This document shows positions 21,479 through 60,475 of a stretch of DNA of 64,000 nt, one piece after another (the first letter of the stretch is position 1; each line of letters opens with the position of its first letter). Below the pieces are notes generated by a model. That model saw only the letters and a program-made list of their open reading frames with translations, ran no database searches and had not been told where the DNA came from. Origin of the DNA: a virus (taxonomy: Duplodnaviria > Caudoviricetes); IMG/VR virus record IMGVR_UViG_3300025849_003344. One strand, written 5' to 3'. Position numbers and translations under genes: made by a program.

Positions 21479-21554
21479 TGGTACTCCCGGTAGGACTCGA
21501 ACCTACAACCAAAACGTTATGAGCGTTCTGCTCTGACCATTGAGCTACAGGAGT
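21479..21554 (-). tRNA. tRNA with CAT anticodon (Ile2 or Met), CCA encoded
   Basis: Cloverleaf ACTCCTG...GAACG CT CAT AA CGTTT...TTCGAGT...CGGGAGT A CCA, 76 nt. Confidence 0.92.
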
Positions 21555-21560
21555 ATTATT

Positions 21561-21638
21561 TGGTGATCTCTGTAGGACTCGAACCTACGACCTAGTCATT
21601 AGAAGTGACTTGCTCTAATCCAGCTGAGCTAAGAGACC
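21561..21638 (-). tRNA. tRNA-Arg(TCT), CCA encoded
   Basis: GGTCTCT...AGTCA CT TCT AA TGACT...TTCGAGT...AGAGATC A CCA. Confidence 0.93.
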
Positions 21639-23021: not shown

Positions 23022-23627
23022 CTATTTTAATTTATTCACGACTACTTCTACATTGTCAGGCAATGAGACCTTTGGCTTACCGTGCATGTGATGTACGACG
23101 AATTGTGTGTTAGGAAACTCACGAAATAAGCCTTCCCAAATAGGTCGCCAGTTTACGGCTAATCGGTGTGTGTTAAATGCATCTCTATTTGAATTAAGTA
23201 CAAAGTCAGTGGTACTAATTAGATTAAAGTCAAATATTGAATCAAATCCGTACATATGGATCTCATCGCAGTTAAGCTTGTTTGCTGTATAATGAGTACA
23301 CATATGCCCACAGTTAAAGTCGGTGTAGTTATTAGCATATCGTGGTAGATCTAAATAGAAATCTTTAATATGCCTAGAAAAGCGCATATGGAATTGTGGA
23401 TTCATCTCAGTGAATTTTTTAGGCCTTGCACCCATAATCCAATCGTATCCACGTAAGTCCACACTACCCTCTTCAATAGCGCGACACATTTTAAAATCTA
23501 CGATAGCTGTACCATACACATTATCAATGGCGGTAGGTGGCAGATTGCATGTGAGCTTTAAGCCCTTAGCGGGTTTATAGAACCTGTAACTATCACCATT
23601 ACCAATAATATGAGCAACCTTAGGCAT
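23022..23627 (-). CDS. Glycan-cluster protein with IIGNG motif (DUF115/GT-like)
   Basis: AHIIGNGDS...NCG...EIHMYGFD. Confidence 0.55.
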   Translation of the reverse strand: MPKVAHIIGNGDSYRFYKPAKGLKLTCNLPPTAIDNVYGTAIVDFKMCRAIEEGSVDLRGYDWIMGARPKKFTEMNPQFHMRFSRHIKDFYLDLPRYANNYTDFNCGHMCTHYTANKLNCDEIHMYGFDSIFDFNLISTTDFVLNSNRDAFNTHRLAVNWRPIWEGLFREFPNTQFVVHHMHGKPKVSLPDNVEVVVNKLK

Positions 23628-24288
23628 TCATTAAACTCCGAATATGTTCTTTACCCTTCGCACCAGTGTGATGCTTAATGCGGATATCTTTAACTTTGTT
23701 ACCATCAAGTCCATCTAATCGTAGGTAGTTATATTGTGGTGGTAACCTGTTTATGTATATAGCCTTTGCAAGAGGATCTAACATAGCGTGTAAGACTTCT
23801 TGATCTCCACGTTGCTGTGGATTTTCGAAGCATGCCTGTGCCCACCTTCTTAGCATCTCAGGTTTACCCTCAAATGCGACAACGCCTGAGTTGTACCATT
23901 CTTCTCCTGACCGTTTAGTCCATGGTGTATCCATACACATATTCAGTTTTTGTGCTAAACAATGATTCCAAATATCTGAAATATTACCAACCACTTCACA
24001 ATCAACATCAACCCATACTGTTCGTTTGTATGGTGAGTTCATCATTGCGCCAGGTTTTTTAAACCATGTTGCTTGACCAGTTGCTTGCTCAAGGTGTCCA
24101 ATAGAACTAACTTTTGTTTCAACATAGTCAATCATTTTTTGGGACATACCAAAATTTATAACTGACAATGGCATATCATTATGTTTATAATAATTCTCAA
24201 TAAACCAAGGGAGCATCCATTCAGCTTCTCTATCACATCCGGTTAGGACGCATTCACTTAAATCAGGTTTAGACATCAATAATCTCAT
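23620..24288 (-). CDS. GT-A glycosyltransferase (GT8/GT77-like)
   Basis: WFKKP...VWVDVDC (DxD)...YNSGVV...GDQEVL...HHTG. Confidence 0.8.
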   Translation of the reverse strand: MRLLMSKPDLSECVLTGCDREAEWMLPWFIENYYKHNDMPLSVINFGMSQKMIDYVETKVSSIGHLEQATGQATWFKKPGAMMNSPYKRTVWVDVDCEVVGNISDIWNHCLAQKLNMCMDTPWTKRSGEEWYNSGVVAFEGKPEMLRRWAQACFENPQQRGDQEVLHAMLDPLAKAIYINRLPPQYNYLRLDGLDGNKVKDIRIKHHTGAKGKEHIRSLMNA

Positions 24289-24922
24289 ATCTTTGGTTAA
24301 AATTATGTTTGGCTTGACAACCGGCCGGAGCTTGAATTGTAGTAAATGTATCTTTGGCTTCTACAGGCCATGGATATATTTCTTCAAGGAAGGGAAAAGT
24401 CGCTTTATTTAGAAACACGTCTGTAGGACGAGCTTCCATAATTGCTTGTTGAATAAGCTGTTCAGCTCCCGCCGGATTTACTCTATACGCATGCGCACCA
24501 GGGAAATACGGTTTAGACACCAACGGTTGAACACCAAACCGTATAGGTTGATTGAACCTGCCATAAGACGGTTGTCCTAACGATACACATCCTTTAAACA
24601 CCATATTAGAACTAATATTATTAATACATATTGCGTCATGTTCAAAGATAGTAATCGATTCTTTGGTGCGTACACATTCTTGCCATAAGCTGAAATGTGA
24701 TAGGAATGCAGCAATACAATTTTCCGTACGAGAATATACTTCATCCATTGCTGCAACATTAATGCCAAAGGCTTTTACTATACCATTTAAATCATCGGCC
24801 GGAGTAGTAGCTTTCCATTTTTCAATAGTAAGTCCACCTGTGCTTAAACCAGATTTAATACACCGCTCTGCAGCCTTAACAGACTTTTCGTTATCAGCTA
24901 TAGTAATTACGTAATGTTTCAT
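24269..24922 (-). CDS. Glycosyltransferase family 25-like
   Basis: AFLSHFSLW...IFEHDA...GAHAYRV. Confidence 0.8.
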   Translation of the reverse strand: MKHYVITIADNEKSVKAAERCIKSGLSTGGLTIEKWKATTPADDLNGIVKAFGINVAAMDEVYSRTENCIAAFLSHFSLWQECVRTKESITIFEHDAICINNISSNMVFKGCVSLGQPSYGRFNQPIRFGVQPLVSKPYFPGAHAYRVNPAGAEQLIQQAIMEARPTDVFLNKATFPFLEEIYPWPVEAKDTFTTIQAPAGCQAKHNFNQRYEIIDV

Positions 24923-25617
24923 AATGTAGTTGTACTAGGAAGTCCTTGTACCCTTGTATAATATCGTTTGGTGACCCGTAGGAAATTAAAGTTCTGATAA
25001 CAAAGAAGCGCGTCGTTTGGCCATGCTCCAATTCTATTAACAGTTTCGATAACCTTCTTAGCTGCGCTTGGTGTAATTATATATGCACTGTTTCCGGCTA
25101 ACCCTTGAGGCACATCCCATGTGTCAATCTTAGGTAATTGTTGTATTACCTTATCATTTTTTTGTATAATATCGTGGAATAATCCTGCCATACGTGTAGC
25201 ACCACGAGGATCATTGATGCCCAGCACACAGTCATATCCTGGCTCAGCCTCGCCAGGATCAACTAGCTTATTAGTAAATATTGCATCATGTTCTAGAATT
25301 AAATAATTCTCAGATGATTTAGCAGCTTCTTTCCACAACCTATAATGACTCATAAAACATGCTACGCGTTTACGCGGATCTGCACCAGAGTATGCACTTA
25401 GTTTCAAACCTGTTGCTATATCAGATTGCTGACCTTCCCACGGATAAGTCCAACGTAAACCTTCACGTGTAAAAAGCTTATTACTTTCATCTGCCGTAAT
25501 AGCATCGAAGGTTTTAATATCAAACTCATTCTCAAATAAGGCCGAAGATTCTCTTAATACTCCGGCCCCTGTTTCAGAAAGATGATTGCCTTTAATAGTT
25601 ATTACTCTAGCTTGCAT
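24919..25617 (-). CDS. Glycosyltransferase family 25-like
   Basis: ACFMSHYRLW...ILEHDA...GNSAYIITPSAA. Confidence 0.8.
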   Translation of the reverse strand: MQARVITIKGNHLSETGAGVLRESSALFENEFDIKTFDAITADESNKLFTREGLRWTYPWEGQQSDIATGLKLSAYSGADPRKRVACFMSHYRLWKEAAKSSENYLILEHDAIFTNKLVDPGEAEPGYDCVLGINDPRGATRMAGLFHDIIQKNDKVIQQLPKIDTWDVPQGLAGNSAYIITPSAAKKVIETVNRIGAWPNDALLCYQNFNFLRVTKRYYTRVQGLPSTTTL

Positions 25618-26239
25618 TTCTTAACTCAATAATATAACTGTCAGGTGCTCCAGTTAGCTTACGCTGATCATGACGCTTGATATTCATACCAGATTTTTCT
25701 ATTGTTCCAAGGAACATCTCATTATCAAGATGGTTATATCGGTCAGGATATTTCTGTAACCATTCTAGTTGTAGTTCTTTAGTAGTCATAATCTCTAGTG
25801 GAAACACATCTTCAATAAAGAAGACACCATCGTCAGCTAAAAATTGTGATAGATTTTTAAACGTCTGCATGTTGGCTTTAGGTGTATGCATTCCGTCATC
25901 AATGATAACATCAAACTTAATGTCTCCCCACTTCGAACGAATTTCACGTGCAATAGATGGATCAGTACTACTCGCTTTAATCCAATCAGCACGGTCATAC
26001 GTGTAACAATTTAAATCTTGAGGTTTAGTTCGAGTAAAAATGTCTACTCCATACATATTAGCCATAGGTAAGTATTGGAGAAAAGCTTCTGTGCTATGGC
26101 CGTTAAATACGCCGACCTCAAGAATGTTGATACGCTTATTCATCATCGTATCCATCACTGGTGCATATACACGATCATATTGATGCTTACGCGTTTTGTC
26201 ACATCCATACTTATTAAATAGATCGCCTAGTTCACTCAT
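25607..26239 (-). CDS. Class I SAM-dependent methyltransferase
   Basis: ILEVGVFNGHS...GVDIF...FDVIIDDGMH...GVFFIED. Confidence 0.85.
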   Translation of the reverse strand: MSELGDLFNKYGCDKTRKHQYDRVYAPVMDTMMNKRINILEVGVFNGHSTEAFLQYLPMANMYGVDIFTRTKPQDLNCYTYDRADWIKASSTDPSIAREIRSKWGDIKFDVIIDDGMHTPKANMQTFKNLSQFLADDGVFFIEDVFPLEIMTTKELQLEWLQKYPDRYNHLDNEMFLGTIEKSGMNIKRHDQRKLTGAPDSYIIELRNAS

Positions 26240-26927
26240 TATCTAATCTCCAATAGTTTTTGGTCGCAGCACTATTAAAATCAAATCCCCAATGGTCAAT
26301 ATCTTTCTTGTACCAATCAGCGACAATTTGAATCGTCTTATCATTATATATCTTCTGATAAGTGCCCTCATTTAGTGCTGTTACATTCCTAGCACGAGAC
26401 ATTTGCGGAATTTTAAAATACGCAATTAATTCGGCATTAAGATGTTCGAATCTTAACATATCGCATTTAACATTACCCTTTTCATCTGAGACGTGGTCAA
26501 ACGCCGGATACCAACCACGAATAGCACGATGCCACATGAATGGATGATTCCCCCATTTGTGACGCTCTTCAAGAAATGCTTCAAAGCTAGAAACATCTGC
26601 ATAGGTTGGGTCAGCCTTTTTTTCTACTTGGATTACTTTTTTTGCGAAAAAATATCGAGATACCACACGACTCCAAGGGTTCCTAATAATGCCGAAAGCT
26701 CCAAATTGTTTAGTGTAATCTGGGTTAAGATCTCTCCAACGGGCATGCTCAATTCCATGATGATCTCCTGTCATTGCCATAGTATCTAGTAGCTCTTGAG
26801 TATATTCACGACTCTTGTGTGTATTTTGATTATTGACTAAAATCTTATCTCTTAAGAATGGGCTATGACGAATGGTCATGCCAGCATTTTTAGGGATATG
26901 AACAAAAATCTTTTTATTATCCAACAT
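26232..26927 (-). CDS. Sulfotransferase family 2 protein
   Basis: FVHIPKNAGMTI (5'-PSB) and RNPWSRVVSRY (3'-PB). Confidence 0.85.
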   Translation of the reverse strand: MLDNKKIFVHIPKNAGMTIRHSPFLRDKILVNNQNTHKSREYTQELLDTMAMTGDHHGIEHARWRDLNPDYTKQFGAFGIIRNPWSRVVSRYFFAKKVIQVEKKADPTYADVSSFEAFLEERHKWGNHPFMWHRAIRGWYPAFDHVSDEKGNVKCDMLRFEHLNAELIAYFKIPQMSRARNVTALNEGTYQKIYNDKTIQIVADWYKKDIDHWGFDFNSAATKNYWRLDNE

Positions 26928-27714
26928 GTTTCATTAATTCCTCTACATTTTCTCCACGGTTTGGCAACTTGTCTTTCAAAAAGAAGTGTACAAAATTGCA
27001 CTCAGGAACTTTATTCATTTCAATTCCAGTAAACAAACCATTCCAATTGAAAGTTAGGTTTTTTACCATCATCTTTGATTCCTTTACCCAAACATTTAGT
27101 AGCGTCTGATCTGTTGACCATTTCCAATTACCAATTCCATCTATGAAAGCTTTAAATTCAGGACGCATAAGAAATTGCATCGGCGTTTGATTACGAGTAT
27201 GTTGTAGGATACCTTTATTTAGTACCATCATCCCCATGTTGTAAAAGTCAGCCCCAGCTCCACTCTTATGCTTCCAATCAAACAAATGATTAATGTTTGA
27301 CATGCCATATTGCATACGAGAATAGTTTGCAATCTTATGAAGGTACTGTGGAGTGACAGGCATGTCTCGTTCAAGTACTCCGCCAAAATCATATTCCATC
27401 GGCACTTCATCAAAAATATTAGGAGATCCTGGACGAATCCAAATATCTGAGTCAATGATTGCCACAGAGTCATATTCTTTTAGATAAGCAAAAGCATTTT
27501 CTTTTTCAAAAATAGGCAGATATCCGCCATGCTTTTCATAAGATTCTTTACTACGATTTGTAGCAAAAACATCAGGCTTAATGCGCAAAATAGGCTGGCG
27601 CTGAATAACATGGTCTATATTATGTGCTTTACAATATTCTGCTACAGAAGCCGTACACGCATCATATAACTTTGATTTCTTACCGACATATACCTGGTAG
27701 ATCAAACGTTTCAT
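26917..27714 (-). CDS. GT-A glycosyltransferase (GT8-like)
   Basis: FEKENAF...IIDSDIW...YNMGMMV...DQTLLN...FVHF. Confidence 0.8.
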   Translation of the reverse strand: MKRLIYQVYVGKKSKLYDACTASVAEYCKAHNIDHVIQRQPILRIKPDVFATNRSKESYEKHGGYLPIFEKENAFAYLKEYDSVAIIDSDIWIRPGSPNIFDEVPMEYDFGGVLERDMPVTPQYLHKIANYSRMQYGMSNINHLFDWKHKSGAGADFYNMGMMVLNKGILQHTRNQTPMQFLMRPEFKAFIDGIGNWKWSTDQTLLNVWVKESKMMVKNLTFNWNGLFTGIEMNKVPECNFVHFFLKDKLPNRGENVEELMKHVG

Positions 27715-27717
27715 TAT

Positions 27718-27942
27718 TCACTCCCCTTCAAATTCGCAAATAATATATTTTGCGATATGCATTGCTCTATCATATGATGGTCTAAGTCTATTAGAAGATC
27801 GACTGTTATTAATAAACCATATGAGACTATGTATACCACTGTTCTTATGCTCTTCAGGAATCTTATAGTTTCGTGTAATAGAGTCGAATTCAGTTCTAAG
27901 ATTTAGAATATTAGCTAGGCTGATAGGGTGTGATAAGTTCAT
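27718..27942 (-). CDS. Hypothetical protein
   Basis: Start moved to MNLSHP at 27942. Confidence 0.5.
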   Translation of the reverse strand: MNLSHPISLANILNLRTEFDSITRNYKIPEEHKNSGIHSLIWFINNSRSSNRLRPSYDRAMHIAKYIICEFEGE

Positions 27943-28531
27943 AGAGTGACTTCCAATCTGTGCAAACCTGGATACTATTTGGATTATGTTTTTCTTCCCG
28001 CATGTGCATATTATGTCCATGTTCTATAAGATATGATTCAAGACCTAGTTTAGAACCAAGCTCAGCATTCTCAACCTTGTCTTCAACCCAAATTAATCCA
28101 CTATCTCTATATGGTTCTAGCACTTCATCCTTATCGGCCCCAGTATCACAAAAAATAAATTTAGTGAATGTTGTTTCGCCAAATAGCTTTTTAGTATTAG
28201 CAATGCGTAAATCCTGAGCATGAGTGTCTAAGGACAAGGAAGTAATCATATGAAATGTAAAACCATGCAGCCTATGAAGGAGATCTACGTAATACATTGC
28301 ATCACGAAGAGGTGGAAGAAATCCAATTGCGGCTGATTCGTTGAAGATCTTAACTACACTCTTTTTTTCAGTATTATTTAAACCATATCGTTCACCCATA
28401 TCATAGGCATATTTGTTCTCAGGTTTAATAGTATAACCTCTGTGCGACATCCAAGTATTGAACGCAAATTCCCAATTCATTAGTACGCCATCACAATCTG
28501 TGAGTATTACTTTATCCATATTGTTAATCAT
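27911..28531 (-). CDS. HAD-family phosphatase / 5'-nucleotidase
   Basis: TDCDGVL (DxDG), ITS, VEDK. Confidence 0.85.
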   Translation of the reverse strand: MINNMDKVILTDCDGVLMNWEFAFNTWMSHRGYTIKPENKYAYDMGERYGLNNTEKKSVVKIFNESAAIGFLPPLRDAMYYVDLLHRLHGFTFHMITSLSLDTHAQDLRIANTKKLFGETTFTKFIFCDTGADKDEVLEPYRDSGLIWVEDKVENAELGSKLGLESYLIEHGHNMHMREEKHNPNSIQVCTDWKSLYELITPYQPS

Positions 28532-29211
28532 CCGAACAACACCTCTTTCTTTTGGCTATTATATAGTTCAATAGTTTCATGCAATTTTTGTGTCCAATTG
28601 TCTCTATGCTCTTTAAAGACAATAGGTTTGCCACCATCTACGTCCATAAGAATAGCAAGATTAGGAATAGCCATTCCGGTTTGCTCTTCCCACATGATAG
28701 CATATGCCGCGGCTTGTTGAAAATATCCACCAATCATAGATTTTTTCTTAGGCCATTTAGAAGTCTTAAAGTCTACGATAGTAGGAACACCTTCAAATAT
28801 ACAAACACAATCACATGTGCCTGCCATTTTGAGATGATCACTAAAAAGCGCAACCTCTAGCTCATAGATTTTTTCTATGCCATCATTTAAAATTGGTTTT
28901 AGATTTACTAGACTTTGCATAATATGTGGCGAGATGCCCTTAGCATAGTCTGGATTATTTGAAAGATATTGCTCTATCAAATCGTGAACTGCGGTTCCAC
29001 GCTTGGCGGCTTTACTGCCGATCTTATTGGCCTCTTCTTCGCCTACTCTTGCTTTCCATTTAGCAATACTTGCAGCGCTTAGAATGCCAGTAACTGTTGT
29101 TACTGAAGGATAGGCCACTCCATCGGGTGTAACGTATCGTCTGCCATTGTCTGTAGTTTCTCGATTAAGAGTATCATAACCCTTTGAGATCTTTTCATGT
29201 ATAAACTGCAT
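28528..29211 (-). CDS. PD-(D/E)XK exonuclease (RecB/Cas4-like)
   Basis: YPSVTTV...RGTAVH...AGTCD...IVDFKTS...QAAAY; early promoter 29237-29265. Confidence 0.9.
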   Translation of the reverse strand: MQFIHEKISKGYDTLNRETTDNGRRYVTPDGVAYPSVTTVTGILSAASIAKWKARVGEEEANKIGSKAAKRGTAVHDLIEQYLSNNPDYAKGISPHIMQSLVNLKPILNDGIEKIYELEVALFSDHLKMAGTCDCVCIFEGVPTIVDFKTSKWPKKKSMIGGYFQQAAAYAIMWEEQTGMAIPNLAILMDVDGGKPIVFKEHRDNWTQKLHETIELYNSQKKEVLFG

Positions 29212-29268
29212 GTGATTCCTAACATAATATTTTACTATTATACCATATCACATGCAGCTTGTACACAC

Positions 29269-30135
29269 TTAACCTAGAAGTTTTTCTAACGTATTTGGTC
29301 CAGCAATACCATCAGGAGTTAAACCTTTTGACGCTTGCCATTTTTTAAGCGCTCGCTCAGTTCCTGGTCCAAACGAACCGTCAGCTCCGATGCCTAATGC
29401 TTCTTGCATCATTTTTACACCAGCACCACGTGAACCTTTACGCAATACACCAATGTCATCAACATCAGGTGCATCATCATTATCATTTAATGAGTCAAGC
29501 ACGACAGGAGCACCAAGGACAGCCATCGCTTTTACATAACGAGCTTGGCGATCAGCCAAACCAATATTACCACCATTGATTTTTTTGGTCATACGTACTA
29601 CATCATCAGTGTCTGCAATATCATTTAGATTGTTTGCATCCCAAAACCAACAAGCACTTTCGACAGCGCCTTTTGGCGTAGCAACATACCGTGAAGCTTT
29701 TTCAGCATCCATACCGACTGACTTACCAAATCGCGTATAGTTCTCACGACCAGTAAGTTGTTTCAATCCACGACCTCGGAACATCCATCCATCTCCTGGA
29801 TTTACGTTACCCATTTTATATTTACGAAACTCATCCTGATATACGTAGTTTGCAATCTTTTCTGGTTTGCGTGCATATTCGGCAGCATTACGTTTAGTTC
29901 CGCCTGTACCAAAATACCGGCCGAATACAGCGTTCAAAGCTTTTTCACTATAGTTTAGATTTTCAGATAAACTACGGAAGTTGTTTGATTCGTGTGCACA
30001 CTGAGAAATGAAATGTGCGATCCTTCGTTTAGAAGTAATACCATACTTTGGCATAATGGCAGCCAAGGCTTCATGCCACGCTTTCACATCTTTGTTACCT
30101 GGGATTAGTTTTGCTAGTTCTGCTTCGTTTAGCAT
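29269..30135 (-). CDS. GH19 endolysin with C-terminal peptidoglycan-binding domain
   Basis: QCAHES...FRGRGLKQLTGRENY...TKKING; DGSFGPGTERALKKWQ...DGIAGPNT. Confidence 0.92.
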   Translation of the reverse strand: MLNEAELAKLIPGNKDVKAWHEALAAIMPKYGITSKRRIAHFISQCAHESNNFRSLSENLNYSEKALNAVFGRYFGTGGTKRNAAEYARKPEKIANYVYQDEFRKYKMGNVNPGDGWMFRGRGLKQLTGRENYTRFGKSVGMDAEKASRYVATPKGAVESACWFWDANNLNDIADTDDVVRMTKKINGGNIGLADRQARYVKAMAVLGAPVVLDSLNDNDDAPDVDDIGVLRKGSRGAGVKMMQEALGIGADGSFGPGTERALKKWQASKGLTPDGIAGPNTLEKLLG

Positions 30136-30144
30136 AGTGATTCC

Positions 30145-30846
30145 TTATAGGTTTAACATTTCTTTTGTCATAATATAATCTCTAACAAAATCAGATCGGA
30201 CAATATCTTCCCACCCAAAATTGATAATATCAAAATTCTTAAGTTGTTCTACAATCGATACAAATTTGTATATTCCTGATCTGTCATCGCTGTATTTAAA
30301 ATCAGTTTGAACCGAATCTCCTGAAAAGATTATTCTTGAGTTTTTGCCGACACGGGTTATTACGGAATCAAGTTCGTGGAAGTTAAGATTCTGCATTTCA
30401 TCAACAAGGATAACAGCATTATCTATAGTCACGCCACGAATAAATGATGTTGATTGAAATTCTATTCGTTTAGTATTTATCGCTTTACTCCAAGATCCCT
30501 TATCACCAAACAATTCATCACAAATTGCTTTGTATGGCGCAGTGTAAACATCTTCTTTTTCTTCTTTAGTGCCAGGAATGAATCCCATGTCACGCGTGGG
30601 AACCATAGATCTAATTACGATTAACCTATCCTGTAATGTTTCAGCATCAAGAATACATTCAAGTCCGAGATACATTCCCATAAAAGTTTTACCTGTTCCG
30701 GCAGATCCAGTAAGTATTAGATTATCACCTTCATCCCAACTTTCATAAGCTCTTGCTTGATTGTTAGTAAGAGGTTCATATTCCAATAGATCATCGATTC
30801 TAACCTGCATAGTTCGGTGCGGCTTTGCCATTTTACGAGTCTTCAT
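30145..30846 (-). CDS. phoH: PhoH-family ATPase
   Basis: GSAGTGKT...FIRGVT...VDEMQN...GDSVQTD. Confidence 0.92.
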   Translation of the reverse strand: MKTRKMAKPHRTMQVRIDDLLEYEPLTNNQARAYESWDEGDNLILTGSAGTGKTFMGMYLGLECILDAETLQDRLIVIRSMVPTRDMGFIPGTKEEKEDVYTAPYKAICDELFGDKGSWSKAINTKRIEFQSTSFIRGVTIDNAVILVDEMQNLNFHELDSVITRVGKNSRIIFSGDSVQTDFKYSDDRSGIYKFVSIVEQLKNFDIINFGWEDIVRSDFVRDYIMTKEMLNL

Positions 30847-54528: not shown

Positions 54529-55679
54529 ATAATTTAATATTAGGATACAAACGAGGGTATTATCGGTGCCAGGCTATTCAAACAGCGTTAGCTAAATTTC
54601 AGCAGAAGTCAACTATTATAACTGATGAAGATGATTTTGAAAAGATCGAAGGCAACTATGATCGAATATTTACAATGTCAGAAAGCTTACTGCCATTACA
54701 ATACAAATTAGAACAGCAATTAGGAATTAATAACCTAACAAAAGAGTCAGTTGAAATACTTACTAATAAATTTAAAATGGATGAATACGCCAGATCTTTA
54801 GGGTTTACTATTACACCTAAAAGTGTATTGCCTGAAAATGCTGAAGATCTAAACGCATTTGGAGATAAACCTGTTTTTGTAAAACCTGTTGTTGGATCTG
54901 GCACAAAAGATCAGCATCATAACTTTCCATACACTGCATTTAAAAATAAAGATGAATTGTTAAAGCATGTAAGTTTTAATACATGGATTGATAAAGACTT
55001 TAACAACACGCAAAATCAATTGATGGTTCAAGAACATTTACCAGACAACTCAGAGATATACGCGCTTTATGCTTATGTCAATTCTTCTGGAAGAGTCACA
55101 CCTCTCTATTGGTGTAAAGGCATCATAATGGTGAATAATAGGACTGAGACACATTGGCAACCAAGAAATTACTCATTTGAAGGAATACCCACAAATGAAG
55201 TTCCAGGAAAAATAAAACATACCGTGACTTATTTCTATCAAAAATTAGTAGACGGACTTAAAATAAAAAATCTATCAATGGTTGCTGACTTTTATTATTT
55301 TGATGACACGATTAAATTCATTGATTTAAATCCACGTATCGGCCAAGGAATGGTTATGTACGACGATTTATGTGACAATGAATTTTTACCTAATGTCTTT
55401 GCAGAAATGCCTTTACCAGAATTTAAAAGACATTTGTGGAAAGAAACTAAGTTAAAGGCCGGAACCATAAAAAGTGTTGGCGATTATAAATCTGTAGAAG
55501 GAGCGGGCGTTGCTTCAAATTTTCATTTGCATGATGGTGTTGTAATACCGGAAGAATACTGTTTATCAAGTCAGGATTTTCATTTTTCATTATTCGTATC
55601 TGGAAAAGAAAAAACCGATATGTACGAAACATATCGGTCTTCCCATAATCAATTACAAGCTTGTATAGAATATTATTGA
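54525..55679 (+). CDS. ATP-grasp domain protein
   Basis: LTNKFKM, VFVKPVVGSGT, VQEHL, FIDLNPRIG. Confidence 0.85.
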   Translation: MNNLILGYKRGYYRCQAIQTALAKFQQKSTIITDEDDFEKIEGNYDRIFTMSESLLPLQYKLEQQLGINNLTKESVEILTNKFKMDEYARSLGFTITPKSVLPENAEDLNAFGDKPVFVKPVVGSGTKDQHHNFPYTAFKNKDELLKHVSFNTWIDKDFNNTQNQLMVQEHLPDNSEIYALYAYVNSSGRVTPLYWCKGIIMVNNRTETHWQPRNYSFEGIPTNEVPGKIKHTVTYFYQKLVDGLKIKNLSMVADFYYFDDTIKFIDLNPRIGQGMVMYDDLCDNEFLPNVFAEMPLPEFKRHLWKETKLKAGTIKSVGDYKSVEGAGVASNFHLHDGVVIPEEYCLSSQDFHFSLFVSGKEKTDMYETYRSSHNQLQACIEYY

Positions 55680-56443
55680 GTATTGAGAGCTACAGCAGCT
55701 TTAACTTTATCAACAATCATATTTGCATTTGCATCATTTACGACATAAGTCTCAGTTCCTTCAAATGCTGCCAACCATTCATCAGTTGACATTAGTTCGG
55801 CTACGGCTGCGCGCGCTTGCCATACAACGGCCTCTGATGCATTAACGGCAAGAATAATATCAACAAATGCAAAGTCTAGATCACCATTTGCGCTAAAGGC
55901 AAAACAATTTCCGTCTGCTTCAATTTTTTCTTGTCGTGTTTGAATAGTAAAAATAGTATCTGCATCATTAGCAAGATAACCACGAGTTGTTCCGCCTGAA
56001 CCTTCATATGGAACAATCTCAAAATTTACATTATTTGCTTCACCTAACTCATTAATAAATTTAGTTACAGCATCAACGCCACCCCAAGTTGCGACCTTTA
56101 CGGTCTGACCTGCCATATCATCAACCGAGTTGAATGTACGACTGCACATTACTGTTTCATATGTTTGAAGAGCTACGATGGTTGAATCATCAATTGCCAC
56201 TGTTGGCATTTCTGAATCACCTGGCCATTCTGTACTCCACATTGTGAGCACATCGCCACCATCAAAGTAGGTAGACGCTACCACTGGATTTCCAGCTTGT
56301 ACAAAATTATGATCGATTTTAGTACCAACCATATCTAGTACTGCTTTAAACCCGCCCGAATCAGATCCGGTATTAACAATTGTAGTAGCATTTGCGAGAG
56401 GAGCAGCCAAGGAAAAGGCTGCGGCTAGAATAACATTTTTCAT
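55673..56443 (-). CDS. TctC-like periplasmic substrate-binding protein
   Basis: Signal peptide (ANA-T); FEIVPYEGSGGTTRGYLANDAD resembles the TctC PYxG motif. Confidence 0.65.
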   Translation of the reverse strand: MKNVILAAAFSLAAPLANATTIVNTGSDSGGFKAVLDMVGTKIDHNFVQAGNPVVASTYFDGGDVLTMWSTEWPGDSEMPTVAIDDSTIVALQTYETVMCSRTFNSVDDMAGQTVKVATWGGVDAVTKFINELGEANNVNFEIVPYEGSGGTTRGYLANDADTIFTIQTRQEKIEADGNCFAFSANGDLDFAFVDIILAVNASEAVVWQARAAVAELMSTDEWLAAFEGTETYVVNDANANMIVDKVKAAVALNTQ

Positions 56444-56532
56444 TATCAGTCCTTATTTACAAAAAATTATAAAGTGTGGGGCTAACCTCGGCCCCACGCG
56501 CATCCGATAGTGGATGATACTTCTTCTATATA

Positions 56533-56901
56533 TTAGAAAGAAAAGCTAGCGCCAATTACGACATCGCCGCGAGTTTCGTTTTCTAAATCATAATCAGTTT
56601 CAACATATACTTCTGCGTTGTCGAAGATACCATAACCGACTTTAAAGTCAAGTGTTGGATTTGTATCCATGAATACAAACTCGTCGTTGTAAATCATGAG
56701 ATCAGTTGAAAGTGTAAAGTCCATGCCGTAAAGACCATAACCCATTTCTGGAGTAAGTTCAACGGTCATGTTTTCAACATCGACATTATATTCAGCAGTT
56801 GTTGTAGCACCAAGTGAGATACCAGTGGCTCCAAGCTCAGCGGCTTGAATAGTTGTTGCTGAGGCCAGCAACACAGCAGCAGTAATAGCAGCAAATTTCA
56901 T
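56533..56901 (-). CDS. Small outer-membrane beta-barrel/porin-like protein
   Basis: Signal peptide, amphipathic beta strands, C-terminal IGASFSF. Confidence 0.7.
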   Translation of the reverse strand: MKFAAITAAVLLASATTIQAAELGATGISLGATTTAEYNVDVENMTVELTPEMGYGLYGMDFTLSTDLMIYNDEFVFMDTNPTLDFKVGYGIFDNAEVYVETDYDLENETRGDVVIGASFSF

Positions 56902-56925
56902 TAGTTTATTTCCCTTATAAGAAAG

Positions 56926-57156
56926 TTATTTTCGATTCCAGATTTCGTATAGAACCCAAACAGCAAGTAAACCTACAAGGCCTTGTGATCCCAATGCGGC
57001 TATCATAGCACTTACATTAGCCACAACGCTTACAGCAGGAATGAATGGAAGTGTTCCCACGCCCAATACTTCAAGTACAATCATGAGAGCGGCGATACTA
57101 ATACCGACTTCTGCTAGTCCAGCAGCCCATGTTTTTACTTTGTTTAGAATGTCCAT
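56926..57156 (-). CDS. Small membrane protein
   Basis: Two hydrophobic helices. Confidence 0.65.
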   Translation of the reverse strand: MDILNKVKTWAAGLAEVGISIAALMIVLEVLGVGTLPFIPAVSVVANVSAMIAALGSQGLVGLLAVWVLYEIWNRK

Positions 57157-57174
57157 AGTTGTCCCCTTAGAAGT

Positions 57175-57430
57175 TAAAACGCCACACTTCTGTTACTAGG
57201 CAGTGGCCGCCCTCTTAATTATGCAGCTAGTGCGTAATCAGATGGTGCAAAATTATTGTTTGCATTTGTAGTGATTGACCTATTTCGCAGTCAGCCGGTA
57301 AACTCCACGTCACTTTCACACCTGTCGATCCTATTTCAGCCCCATCAAAAATACACATTATGTACTTATGGTGGAGCTGCCGGGTACCGCCCCCGGGTCC
57401 AGTATGTGTCTACGTTGCTTCAACGTTTAC
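57175..57430 (-). ncRNA. ssrA: Circularly permuted two-piece tmRNA
   Basis: Acceptor piece ...GACCCGGGGGCGGTACCCGGCAGCTCCACCA (ends 57369), 25-nt spacer, coding piece GGGGCTGAAATAGGATCGAC from 57343, tag ANNNFAPSDYALAA* (57263-57219); outer ends approximate. Confidence 0.92.
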
Positions 57431-57524
57431 AAGATTATTTATGACGTATTTGGCGTAATCCCTGACTATACGTGGGCTGTGTGATATAATTATCACTCGT
57501 CCGTCTTCGCCATAAGCTGTGTAT

Positions 57525-57881
57525 TTATTCTTCCTCTTGACTATCGTGTACATGTAATTGTAATAGCGCGTAATGAATGACTTTTAGAAGATCCTTGCGC
57601 GCATCCTCTCTAGTACCTTTTTTGCCATAACGATTTGCGTACTTGTCAACATTACCCATACAGAAACCAGTACCGTGACCTCTAGCAATAATAACTTCAG
57701 TCGATTGAAACTTATTTGTAGCGTAGTGACCTTTATACGTCGAGTCAATATATTCTTTTAGCTCTTGCATATATTTATCTTCACCGAACTTATAATCAAT
57801 TAGATCGAGTTCTGGGAAATCAAATGTAGTATCACCTAGAGTTATAGTTAAGTTGTCTGTCGTCATGATTGAATCCTTCAT
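57525..57881 (-). CDS. DUF3310-like protein
   Basis: YKGHY...GFCMGNVDKYANRYGKK...DLLKVIHY. Confidence 0.75.
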   Translation of the reverse strand: MKDSIMTTDNLTITLGDTTFDFPELDLIDYKFGEDKYMQELKEYIDSTYKGHYATNKFQSTEVIIARGHGTGFCMGNVDKYANRYGKKGTREDARKDLLKVIHYALLQLHVHDSQEEE

Positions 57882-58370
57882 TTATTTTTCCCAGTAAAAT
57901 ATGTGTGCTCCGATACGAGCAATACGGTTAAGTTTCTTTGACCAGAATGGTTTAGCATAAGTAGCGTGATAGTGTGTTGCGCCTTCAGTAATTCCACGAA
58001 ATTCACCATGGATATACATGTCCCGAGCAAACTTACGTGATTTTTCCCATGCTTCATCATCGTGTGGAGTATCTGATTTGCCATCACAATACCAGCTAAA
58101 TTGGCAATAACGGTTGCCTTTTTTATATCCTTGATGAACTACATCGCATGGTGTGTTTGGATAACGTGTGCTTTCTACACGATTTAAAACAACATCAGTG
58201 ACTGCCATTGCATCCGCTAAGCTACGAGAATGTGTCTCATAATAAACGTTAAGCGCTAAGCATTCTAATTGTTTTTCTTGTTCTACCTTTTCTGCCGCGT
58301 CTACTCCGATAGCCATAACGCTTGTTGCAACTATAGTGTTAATCATTACTGATGCGATTAACTTTTTCAT
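57882..58370 (-). CDS. SleB/Hydrolase_2 cell-wall hydrolase
   Basis: CLALNVYYE...VVLNRV...CQFSWYCDG...GATHYHA...IGAHIFY; early promoter 58402-58430. Confidence 0.9.
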   Translation of the reverse strand: MKKLIASVMINTIVATSVMAIGVDAAEKVEQEKQLECLALNVYYETHSRSLADAMAVTDVVLNRVESTRYPNTPCDVVHQGYKKGNRYCQFSWYCDGKSDTPHDDEAWEKSRKFARDMYIHGEFRGITEGATHYHATYAKPFWSKKLNRIARIGAHIFYWEK

Positions 58371-58433
58371 GGTACTGCCTCATTTTTTTATATATGAGTA
58401 TACCTTAACATGTTTTAAAAGCAATGTACACAG

Positions 58434-59114
58434 TTAATTTAGCTTTATTGGAAATATTTTTTCAATAGCTTTACCTACTTCGATAGCCAAATCCATATGT
58501 TCTTTCTGTGTTCCATTTGCAGATCGAAGTTCGATATAATGAATCCATGATCTAATAGTACCATTCACATACAATCTAGAAACGGTATTGCCTTCTGGCA
58601 GAACAGCTCTGGCTTGCTCTTTGGCAATGCCTGCTTCAATAGCCCAGTCATAAGCATGCTTCGCCGCTTCGATTACTTTTTGCTGATGGGCATGCCACGC
58701 TCTTTGAAGATGTTTATCATCTGTATCAATTGAGTTCTGGCGGTTCTTAGTATCTTGTAGGCGCGCCTCTCGAATTACAAAATTATTACCAAGATCACGT
58801 ACATCAGCATAGCGCTGACTAAACTCCTGAAAAGAAAACGAACGATGCCGGAGTAACTGTCTGGCGATGTCTCTTGTCGTGGTGACTTCGATGCACGCTG
58901 ACGCCATTTCGAATGGTGACCAGTGCTTGTGCTTGACGAGGTACTCCAAGAGTTTTTGTGTTGTCTTTGTGTTCCGCTGATTCGACGGATTGGAGACACG
59001 GGCGGCAAACGCGATGAGATCCGCAATGTTATCTAAACCTCCTATTGCCAATTCTCCGCCATGAATACGGTAAGATGGCTGACTGTGTGAAATTAGGCGA
59101 GCTTCCATGGTCAT
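58434..59114 (-). CDS. thyX: FAD-dependent thymidylate synthase
   Basis: HWSPFE...RQLLRHRSFSFQEFSQRY...RSWIHYIELR. Confidence 0.95.
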   Translation of the reverse strand: MTMEARLISHSQPSYRIHGGELAIGGLDNIADLIAFAARVSNPSNQRNTKTTQKLLEYLVKHKHWSPFEMASACIEVTTTRDIARQLLRHRSFSFQEFSQRYADVRDLGNNFVIREARLQDTKNRQNSIDTDDKHLQRAWHAHQQKVIEAAKHAYDWAIEAGIAKEQARAVLPEGNTVSRLYVNGTIRSWIHYIELRSANGTQKEHMDLAIEVGKAIEKIFPIKLN

Positions 59115-60475
59115 AGTTTAAAGTCCTCAAATCTTTTATTTGCTTCTGATTTATCAAATACTGGAGTATCATCCATTAGAGATTGGTTATTTTCGTCTAC
59201 GTCAAATAGACGCATCTTAGATCTATCTATTCCTAGAATAAACCTTTTCTTATATGTTGGATCATTATAGCGATTCTTCAATTGCTTAACCATCAGTTGT
59301 CCTTGTTGTTCAAGTTCTTCGGTTGAAACAAGTGCGAACATAAGGTCGGCCGTTGCGGGTAATCCAAAAGACTCGGACGTATCTTCAAGCCCAACATCTG
59401 AGTTAGAGTAACCACTACGCGTCGTCTGAGTTGCAGATACGACCGGAACGTCAAATTCAACTGCAAGGCCTCTAAGTTCTTCTGCAATCGCTTTGACATA
59501 AGTGTAAGAGTTGATAGCACCGCCCATACCTTTCATACGTGAAGACGAACAGATATTTAAATAATCAATAAAGATAATATCTGGTTCAAATTTCTTTTTA
59601 AGTTTTAACTCATTTAGTAATGCCCTAAAGTGCCCAGAGTGTGCTGAACCCGTTGGATATTCTTTTACGATCAATCGGCCAGTTGTTTGTTTTGCTAGTT
59701 GAGATACCTTTTGTGAAAACATATCTTTCGAAAGTTTGTCTAGCTGATCAATAGGGATATTAAGAAGATTAGCATCAATGCGTTCAGCGATACGTTCTTC
59801 TGCCATTTCCATAGTAATATACAAAACATTTTTTTGGTCAGTCAATGCTGCAGCGCCCATGTGGCACATAAACAAAGACTTACCGACACCGGTGCCAGCC
59901 AAAGCAATATTCAATGTCTTGTTTGGCAAGCCGCCCTTAGTAATCTTATTAAAGTAGTCGAGATCAAAGGCAATACGTTCTTCTTCTTTATGGTAAAACT
60001 CATAACGATCATTGAAGTTTTCAATATAGTCATGACCGATATTCGCGTCAAAGTTAACTGCCAGAGCATCAGAGAGGATCTCTGGTAGCGCATTCTTTGA
60101 AAGCGTTTGGTGTTTACCGTCAATAATACTGATAGATTCCATTACTGCATTGTGCAATGCTCTATCTTGACACCACTTCTCGGTTTTATCGATTAGCCAT
60201 TCATAATCAATATCTTCGACTTTAAAGATCTCTGGTAGGATCTCAACAGCATGCCGATATTGTTCATCGTTAAAGCTATCAGAATCATCTAACTCAATCT
60301 TAAATGATTCCTGAGTTGGTAGTTTATTATATTTAGAAACGTATTTGCCGACTTCCTTAAACAGCTGACGATAGACACCTTCAAAATATTCATTATGTAT
60401 AAAAGGTAAAACCTTCCGCATGAATTTATCATTCACCAAAAGGTTTCTCAAAATTGTTTGTTCAATGTTCGTCAA
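59111..60475 (-). CDS. gp41: Replicative DNA helicase gp41
   Basis: AGTGVGKS, ITMEMAEE, IDYLN, ESFGLPATAD, QLKNRY. Confidence 0.95.
   Translation of the reverse strand: MTNIEQTILRNLLVNDKFMRKVLPFIHNEYFEGVYRQLFKEVGKYVSKYNKLPTQESFKIELDDSDSFNDEQYRHAVEILPEIFKVEDIDYEWLIDKTEKWCQDRALHNAVMESISIIDGKHQTLSKNALPEILSDALAVNFDANIGHDYIENFNDRYEFYHKEEERIAFDLDYFNKITKGGLPNKTLNIALAGTGVGKSLFMCHMGAAALTDQKNVLYITMEMAEERIAERIDANLLNIPIDQLDKLSKDMFSQKVSQLAKQTTGRLIVKEYPTGSAHSGHFRALLNELKLKKKFEPDIIFIDYLNICSSSRMKGMGGAINSYTYVKAIAEELRGLAVEFDVPVVSATQTTRSGYSNSDVGLEDTSESFGLPATADLMFALVSTEELEQQGQLMVKQLKNRYNDPTYKKRFILGIDRSKMRLFDVDENNQSLMDDTPVFDKSEANKRFEDFKL

Follow-up and report, generated by a model that had tools for sequence, protein, structure and literature searches.

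The window, by which the whole analysed stretch of 64,000 nucleotides is meant, carries on its minus strand a gene for a tmRNA, the RNA that releases stalled ribosomes, and this identification is near certain. With a rough probability of 0.8, the gene specifies a functional, phage-encoded two-piece tmRNA (ssrA) of the alphaproteobacterial type, belonging to an uncultured marine T4-like myovirus, that would function in trans-translation during infection. On this reading, a widespread uncultured group of marine T4-like phages keeps a ribosome-rescue RNA of its own under selection while relying on host SmpB, which adds to the case for phage management of translation quality control during infection. 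Two-piece tmRNAs of phages have been published for Melnitz, pelagimyophages, and roseophages (PMC9004378), so the window copy adds a data point and no new concept; its contributions are a distinct tag, the lack of a riboswitch, and a minimal spacer.

In an ARAGORN search, 57128-57462(-) comes out as a permuted tmRNA carrying the tag ANNNFAPSDYALAA, and two Rfam covariance models match the same region: RF04321 (tmRNA_permuted) at 126.2 bits against a gathering score of 47 (E 2.8e-24, span 57219-57430), and RF01849 (alpha_tmRNA) at 106.1 bits against a gathering score of 50 (E 5.8e-28, span 57178-57475). Both scores lie far beyond chance. An earlier note on this DNA had proposed a permuted tmRNA at 57175-57430 and had named ARAGORN and covariance-model searches as its check, the lack of a match being grounds for rejection; both searches found the gene, and every feature that the note had listed lies where it was placed. 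The gene is circularly permuted, so that on the minus strand the CCA-ending acceptor piece comes first, followed by the spacer and then by the tag-coding piece (Table 1). GGGGCUG and CAGCUCC form a perfect 7-bp acceptor stem that includes the G3·U70 wobble, an alanine identity element, and the T-stem has 5 bp. The proposed T-loop variant is the alpha-type GGCGGUA, and the proposed hairpin spacer between CCACCA and GGGGCTG is exactly 25 nt long and folds as a hairpin, its stem pairing 57367-57360 with 57356-57349 and a U at -1 preceding G1. Following the GGGGCUG strand, the coding piece contains GAAAUAGGAUCGAC, the 3' strands of P2, the PK1 region, the tag frame, and a 3' pseudoknot; the tag ends in ALAA, as had been claimed. 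The pseudoknot covaries among relatives and surrounds a conserved AACAGAA within its conserved loop, AGUAACAGAA. Folding of the single sequence recovers the T-arm, the acceptor stem, and the spacer hairpin, at an MFE z-score of -1.64, which is not significant.

Table 1. Features of the window around the tmRNA gene, and sites of open reading frames in the spacers of related tmRNA loci (positions within each contig)
Feature	Position	Strand	Sequence or remark	Basis
gp41-type helicase	59111-60475	-
ThyX	58434-59114	-
SleB-type cell-wall hydrolase	57882-58370	-
DUF3310/phrog_480 protein	57525-57881	-
Late-promoter-like motif	57436-57443	-	CATAAATA; T4/cyanomyovirus form NATAAATA	sequence reading
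Acceptor piece (3' part of standard tmRNA)	57369-57430	-		Rfam alignments, sequence
Start of acceptor piece	from 57430	-	reads GUAAACGUUG	probable 5' end, from model start and promoter position
P2 5' strands	within 57369-57430	-		Rfam alignments
Local hairpin in acceptor piece	57426-57412	-
T-arm	57396-57380	-	CCGGG / GGCGGUA / CCCGG, alpha-type loop, preceded by GAC	direct reading
Acceptor stem, 3' strand	57379-57373	-	CAGCUCC
Discriminator	57372	-	A
Encoded CCA	57371-57369	-	CCA
Intervening segment, 25 nt	57344-57368	-	UAAGUACAUAAUGUGUAUUUUUGAU; predicted removed hairpin	sequence, folding
Coding piece	57178-57343	-	opens GGGGCUGAAAUAGGAUCGAC; 3' end approximate (RF01849 model end 57178)	ARAGORN, Rfam
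Acceptor stem, 5' strand	57343-57337	-	GGGGCUG, including G3
Tag frame, 14 codons	57219-57263	-	ANNNFAPSDYALAA; GCA resume codon (57263), UAA (57221-57219); GCA AAC AAU AAU UUU GCA CCA UCU GAU UAC GCA CUA GCU GCA UAA	ARAGORN, direct reading
3' pseudoknot	57181-57212	-		alignment covariation
3' pseudoknot, stem A	57212-57209 with 57201-57198	-	GGGC/GCCU
3' pseudoknot, stem B	57207-57203 with 57185-57181	-	GCCAC/GUGGC
76-aa predicted two-helix membrane protein	56926-57156	-	directly downstream, co-oriented, accompanies tmRNA in relatives
Spacer ORF, L023	1677-1868	-
Spacer ORF, L058	3837-4028	+
Spacer ORF, L049	4844-4969	+
Spacer ORF, L059	4194-4319	-
Spacer ORF, L088	1730-1918	+
Spacer ORF, L107	873-1061	-
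Spacer ORF, L108	4123-4311	+
Spacer ORF, L030	475-573	-
Spacer ORF, L091	2760-2855	-
Spacer ORF, L109	9337-9444	-
Spacer ORF, L100	3113-3340	-
Spacer ORF, Melnitz (L266)	1624-1788	+

The motif CATAAATA, a putative promoter, stops 5 nt short of the point where the tmRNA model begins, and TATAAATA or a close variant stands at the equivalent spot in most related contigs, usually as a fusion with a strong sigma70-like TTTACA/TTGACA-N17-(TG)TATAAT. Such putative composite promoters precede the tmRNA in L006, L014, L025, L031, L034, L060, L070, L119, L003, L109, and Melnitz (L266:1500-1560), and suggest early plus late expression in those relatives. The window and its closest kin (L099 and L073) have CATAAATA alone (window 57436-57470), and no recognisable sigma70 -35/-10 pair lies upstream of the window tmRNA.

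The tmRNA sequence is present in assembled RNA-library contigs from four studies, where carried-over DNA is a possible source. One RNA run yielded a 161-nt contig (57181-57341) and a 58-nt contig (57369-57426) that resemble the two predicted pieces, with breaks that fit the borders of conserved sequence equally well. RNA-library contigs also bridge the 3' part of the tmRNA and the 76-aa ORF, again possibly through DNA carry-over; they would fit read-through as well as a processed 3' end, and prove neither. As evidence of processing, the RNA-library contigs were set aside, because assembled contigs can neither show RNA ends nor separate RNA from DNA.

The arrangement of the gene suggests the following course. 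A single precursor transcript would be made, probably from the CATAAATA late-type promoter, by read-through, or by both, and would fold so that GGGGCUG pairs with CAGCUCC and the 25-nt hairpin spacer forms the loop. Host RNase P would then cut 5' of G57343, and host 3'-end trimming would expose the CCA at 57369, yielding an acceptor piece of ~62 nt and a coding piece of ~166 nt that are held together by P1 and P2. Host AlaRS would recognise G3·U70 and charge the molecule, which SmpB and EF-Tu of the host would deliver to stalled ribosomes, where translation would resume on GCA and add ANNNFAPSDYALAA, a putative C-terminal degron of the ClpXP type. The likely benefit to the phage would be sustained rescue, with recycling of truncated products, while host RNA synthesis shuts down. 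A role against defences that cleave mRNA or tRNA, raised in the earlier note, is speculative.

The absence of smpB from the window, already remarked on in the earlier note, was borne out by a profile HMM of five SmpB proteins from bacteria, which had no match when the window was translated in six frames (best E 0.34). The same HMM found nothing in 121 viral loci, and no Pfam SmpB match occurs in five related contigs of 68-152 kb with the same tag family, the largest of which is an estimated ~86% complete. Since the window has no smpB, the gene would require the SmpB, RNase P, and AlaRS of the host; dependence of the window phage on host SmpB is well supported, although not proven.

The tag and the tRNA-like domain bear on whether such an RNA, once made, would serve ordinary rescue. 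It might instead act as a decoy or inhibitor of SmpB, as a precedent from DS6A illustrates: this tmRNA, phage-encoded like those of other mycobacteriophages but of the standard non-permuted form and without a tag frame, inhibits the endogenous tmRNA in E. coli (PMC11915505). Alternatively, it might exchange the host tag for a phage-specific one, with altered adaptors or proteases recognising the tagged proteins, or with host proteins tagged for amino-acid recycling; selective tagging of host proteins has been proposed (PMC9004378). The window gene, in contrast to that of DS6A, is of the permuted form, with a full tag frame, a standard ALAA degron, and a complete tRNA-like domain, so that nothing marks a defect of the kind expected of a decoy. 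For a phage-specific tag, the exact pattern ANNNFAPxxYALAA has 0 matches in 185,579 bacterial species genomes, and at least 119 IMG/VR contigs contain the wider family AN[D/N]NFAPS[D/G]YALAA. However, the scanned pattern is fixed to N at position 3 and would overlook the D variant of the sister phages, which makes it weak evidence for a phage-only tag, and the tag of the bacterial copy L257 (locus GC 31%), ANDNFAPVAVAA, has the start ANDNFAP in common with sister phage copies. An RNA of either kind is therefore considered unlikely, and ordinary trans-translation is the preferred function.

The carrier is an uncultured marine T4-like myovirus. The flanking genes are T4-like and include UvsX with a T4_UVSX_C domain, a gp41-type helicase, ThyX, a SleB-type hydrolase, and DUF3310; the helicase shows 71% identity to its counterpart in phage C48C1 (Kyanoviridae) and ~62% identity to cyanomyovirus helicases. 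The GC content is ~38%, and the DNA was found in marine metagenomes of many studies. Upstream of the tmRNA, the co-oriented block 57525..60475(-) precedes the gene in an order that is repeated in related contigs. Downstream, the AAGGGG ribosome-binding site of the 76-aa ORF (57168-57163) lies within 9 nt of the tmRNA; the 76-aa protein has no Pfam or PHROG match. The SleB-type hydrolase, DUF3310 protein, and 76-aa membrane protein together resemble a lysis-type cassette in which the tmRNA is embedded.

A scan of IMG/VR with the alpha-type T-arm/acceptor sequence matched at least 120 contigs. In at least 18 independent viral contigs the tmRNA occupies the same position in the same gene order as in the window (helicase, ThyX, hydrolase, DUF3310, tmRNA, 76-aa ORF), at protein identities of 56-100%, and the locus is kept even among phages whose proteins are just 56-75% identical. 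The acceptor stem is fully complementary in all 19 sequences, by way of CUG/CAG, GCG/CGC, GUG/CAC, UUG/CAA, and CCG/CGG, and G3·U70 never varies in the window and its relatives (7/7 in the RNAalifold alignment). In that alignment of 7 sequences, the T-arm is invariant and the acceptor stem is compensatory, with positions 5-6 changed on both strands. The first pair of P2, read from the alignment, alternates among U-A, A-U, and C-G, and P2 duplex energies show no difference between cognate (-9.95 kcal/mol) and non-cognate (-9.83 kcal/mol) combinations. One PK1 stem changes from UGAC/GUCA to UGAUC/GAUCA or UUAAUC/GAUUAA, while both stems of the 3' pseudoknot covary, stem B with cognate and non-cognate energies of -10.96 and -7.28 kcal/mol, respectively. 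Tag codons are also conserved among the related phage copies. The shared locus, the compensatory helix changes, and the conserved tag codons point to long purifying selection inside phages and mark the tmRNA as a stable, selected phage gene.

As a side observation, the coding pieces of L034, L015/L031, L023/L058, L119, L060, and L106 are compact, lacking a PK1 stretch of ~40 nt that lies between P2 and the resume codon; the window has the long form.

These patterns also bear on the idea that the gene is a non-functional passenger, that is, a host ssrA picked up by imprecise prophage excision, or a remnant of an integration site, that is now drifting. tmRNA genes are common integration sites and leave fragments in prophages (PMC9004378; PMC4383910), and C48C1, the nearest sequenced phage, has no alpha-type tmRNA, which indicates that the phage group can do without the gene. 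(The nearest record, G001, an 18-kb fragment, has neither a tmRNA nor SmpB.) Yet the window gene is complete rather than a fragment, no integrase family was found among the scanned flanking ORFs, the T4-like context is of the lytic type, and a drifting copy would not be expected to keep its locus at 56-75% protein identity together with compensatory helices and conserved tag codons, so that a passenger is very improbable. Bacterial DNA mis-assembled onto phage DNA, or a prophage edge beside a host ssrA, is effectively refuted by recurrent synteny: proviral contigs in IMG/VR do often terminate at a tRNA or tmRNA gene of the host, and the at least 120 pattern-matching contigs may include some of this kind, but here phage genes lie on both flanks within the 64-kb window, and the same junctions recur in independent contigs of different metagenomes and in DNA runs of at least 10 studies. 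A selected tmRNA of the phage itself thus remains the favoured reading.

Phylogenetic analysis suggests a long history of this gene among viruses. In a tree of 189 tmRNAs, the window belongs to a well-supported clade whose 14 rows are exclusively viral and include 10 with the gene order of the window. The 25 rows nearest to the window are likewise all viral, at path distances of at most 0.9, and the nearest bacterial copy lies at 2.06 in a bacterial sample that is biased, as it consists of genomes sharing an exact 32-mer and of the best matches from 401 sampled alphaproteobacterial genomes. This sample includes the unpublished genome G046, on which no claim rests. Among the genomes with the exact 32-nt T-arm/acceptor sequence and the 401 alphaproteobacterial genomes, no close donor or host copy was found, since the conserved core alone matches: the best bacterial matches cover query positions 80-170 at 77 bits or less in the 401 genomes, and one genome sharing the exact T-arm 32-mer reaches 108 bits in the tRNA-like core only. 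Clearly, this lineage has a long evolutionary history within phages.

Judging by its alpha type, the gene originated in Alphaproteobacteria. The nearest bacterial copies are found in small, low-GC genomes, and copies of the L257 type would fit a source among streamlined marine Alphaproteobacteria; a SAR11-like source has been argued by Buchholz et al. (PMC9004378). The earlier note went further and read the likely class of the host from the gene, which is an unsafe step: Melnitz, a phage with an alpha-type tmRNA, infects OM43, a non-alphaproteobacterial host, and the window gene sits in a virus-only clade. The gene would therefore record ancestry and not necessarily the present host, a practical warning that the type of a phage tmRNA tells of the source of the gene. 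Separately, the exact 32-nt alpha-type T-arm/acceptor sequence was observed in Candidatus Saccharibacteria (L129, L132, L134, L152, L174, L181, and L197), in a Bdellovibrionales MAG (L123), and in an Acidobacteria MAG (L175); either alpha-type permuted tmRNAs occur outside Alphaproteobacteria or these MAGs are mis-binned.

Among known tmRNAs, the closest counterpart is provided by Melnitz, an OM43 myophage (host order Methylophilales) with a two-piece alpha-type ssrA (Buchholz et al. 2022, PMC9004378). The same study reported permuted tmRNAs for 17 of 47 related contigs and 53 two-piece tmRNAs, mostly marine, among 402 tmRNA-bearing phage genomes; the 2025 tmRNA database holds 79 unique phage tmRNAs (PMC11915505). 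Melnitz (EXVC044M, MZ577097) and the window both represent marine T4-like myophages filed under Kyanoviridae with alpha-type permuted tmRNAs. Their RF01849 scores are nearly equal (106.7 bits for Melnitz, 106.1 for the window), their coding pieces are 73% identical over 139 nt, and their tags, ANDNYVPVDYALAA in Melnitz and ANNNFAPSDYALAA in the window, both end in DYALAA. Both have ThyX and a cell-wall hydrolase within a few kb, a TATAAATA-type motif directly upstream, and a homologous type of closing stem in the spacer. They differ in T-arm sequence, in their downstream neighbours (gp33/gp59 in Melnitz, the 76-aa membrane protein in the window), and in the sigma70 promoter TTGACA-N17-TATAAA, which is clear in Melnitz and absent from the window. 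The Melnitz spacer is 142 nt long with an RBS-led ORF, whereas that of the window is a bare 25-nt hairpin. Melnitz also has a glutamine riboswitch at the 3' end of its ssrA, for which the window has no equivalent: a riboswitch search returned none in 55500-59500 at E up to 1 and none in the whole window at the gathering score. Downstream of the window gene, a 256-aa and a 122-aa ORF were considered as CsgG and CsgF, the curli genes beside Melnitz ssrA, and rejected for want of any Pfam or PHROG match.

The two-piece tmRNA of the Caulobacter crescentus type (RF01849) has the same order of acceptor piece, intervening sequence, and coding piece, and shares with the window the T-loop GGCGGUA, GAAAUAGGAUCGAC after the acceptor strand, the 3' motif CCUxGxAACAGAA, and an AN(D)N... 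tag ending in AA. Removal of the window spacer is predicted from the biology of two-piece tmRNAs (Keiler, Shapiro & Williams 2000, as cited in PMC9004378). The Caulobacter type is bacterial, whereas the window copy is phage-carried and at a tree distance of at least 2.06 from the sampled bacterial copies. Phage-borne alpha-type tmRNAs with ~90% identity to the window across the tRNA-like core (query 20-116) occur in roseophages and relatives, namely Ruegeria phages DSS3P8 and vB_RpoS-V10, DSS3_MAL1 (annotated ssrA), Phaeobacter phage MD18, Rhodobacter phage RcXuper, and Sinorhizobium phage Phosso. These belong to other phage groups, their tags and 3' domains have no similarity to those of the window, and ssrA is annotated in one record. 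A blastn search of the window tmRNA against GenBank phages gave no match at E 1e-5 and core matches only at E up to 1.

The mini-genes that some spacers bear in relatives are a more interesting lead than the window copy itself. Among the matches listed, 109 viral copies have spacers of 8-266 nt (mode 29), always closed by a covarying stem, and the 25-nt hairpin of the window (57344-57368) corresponds to this closing stem alone. L073, with flanks that match the window at 96-99% identity, has an 85-nt spacer between homologous stem arms. A recombination junction at the L073 spacer was considered and rejected, as upstream proteins are 97-99% identical and identity falls further up, at ThyX. Many spacers of at least 100 nt have an RBS immediately after the CCA followed by an ORF of 30-75 codons, and the Melnitz spacer contains an RBS-led ORF that is unannotated (Table 1). 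The 63-codon ORF shared by L023 and L058 has 8 nucleotide differences, all 8 synonymous, and further families (L049/L059, L088/L107/L108, and L030/L091) are likewise kept from contig to contig, with amino-acid substitutions scattered along them. Small spacer genes of relatives thus often appear to be under selection, and no publication describing protein genes within tmRNA intervening sequences was found. Tentatively, and at somewhat less than even odds, the excised, stem-closed spacer of this virus-only lineage may be a slot from which small protein genes are expressed, and the window would carry the "empty-slot" allele; if so, tmRNA maturation would be coupled to mini-gene expression in these phages.

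Elsewhere in the window, adjacent genes for tRNA-Met(CAT) and tRNA-Arg(TCT) were observed at 21479-21638(-), and L073 has a tRNA-Arg region, 77% identical to that of the window, near its tmRNA locus. Additionally, eleven back-to-back ORFs of 201-288 aa at 23022-30846(-) might represent a paralogue array.
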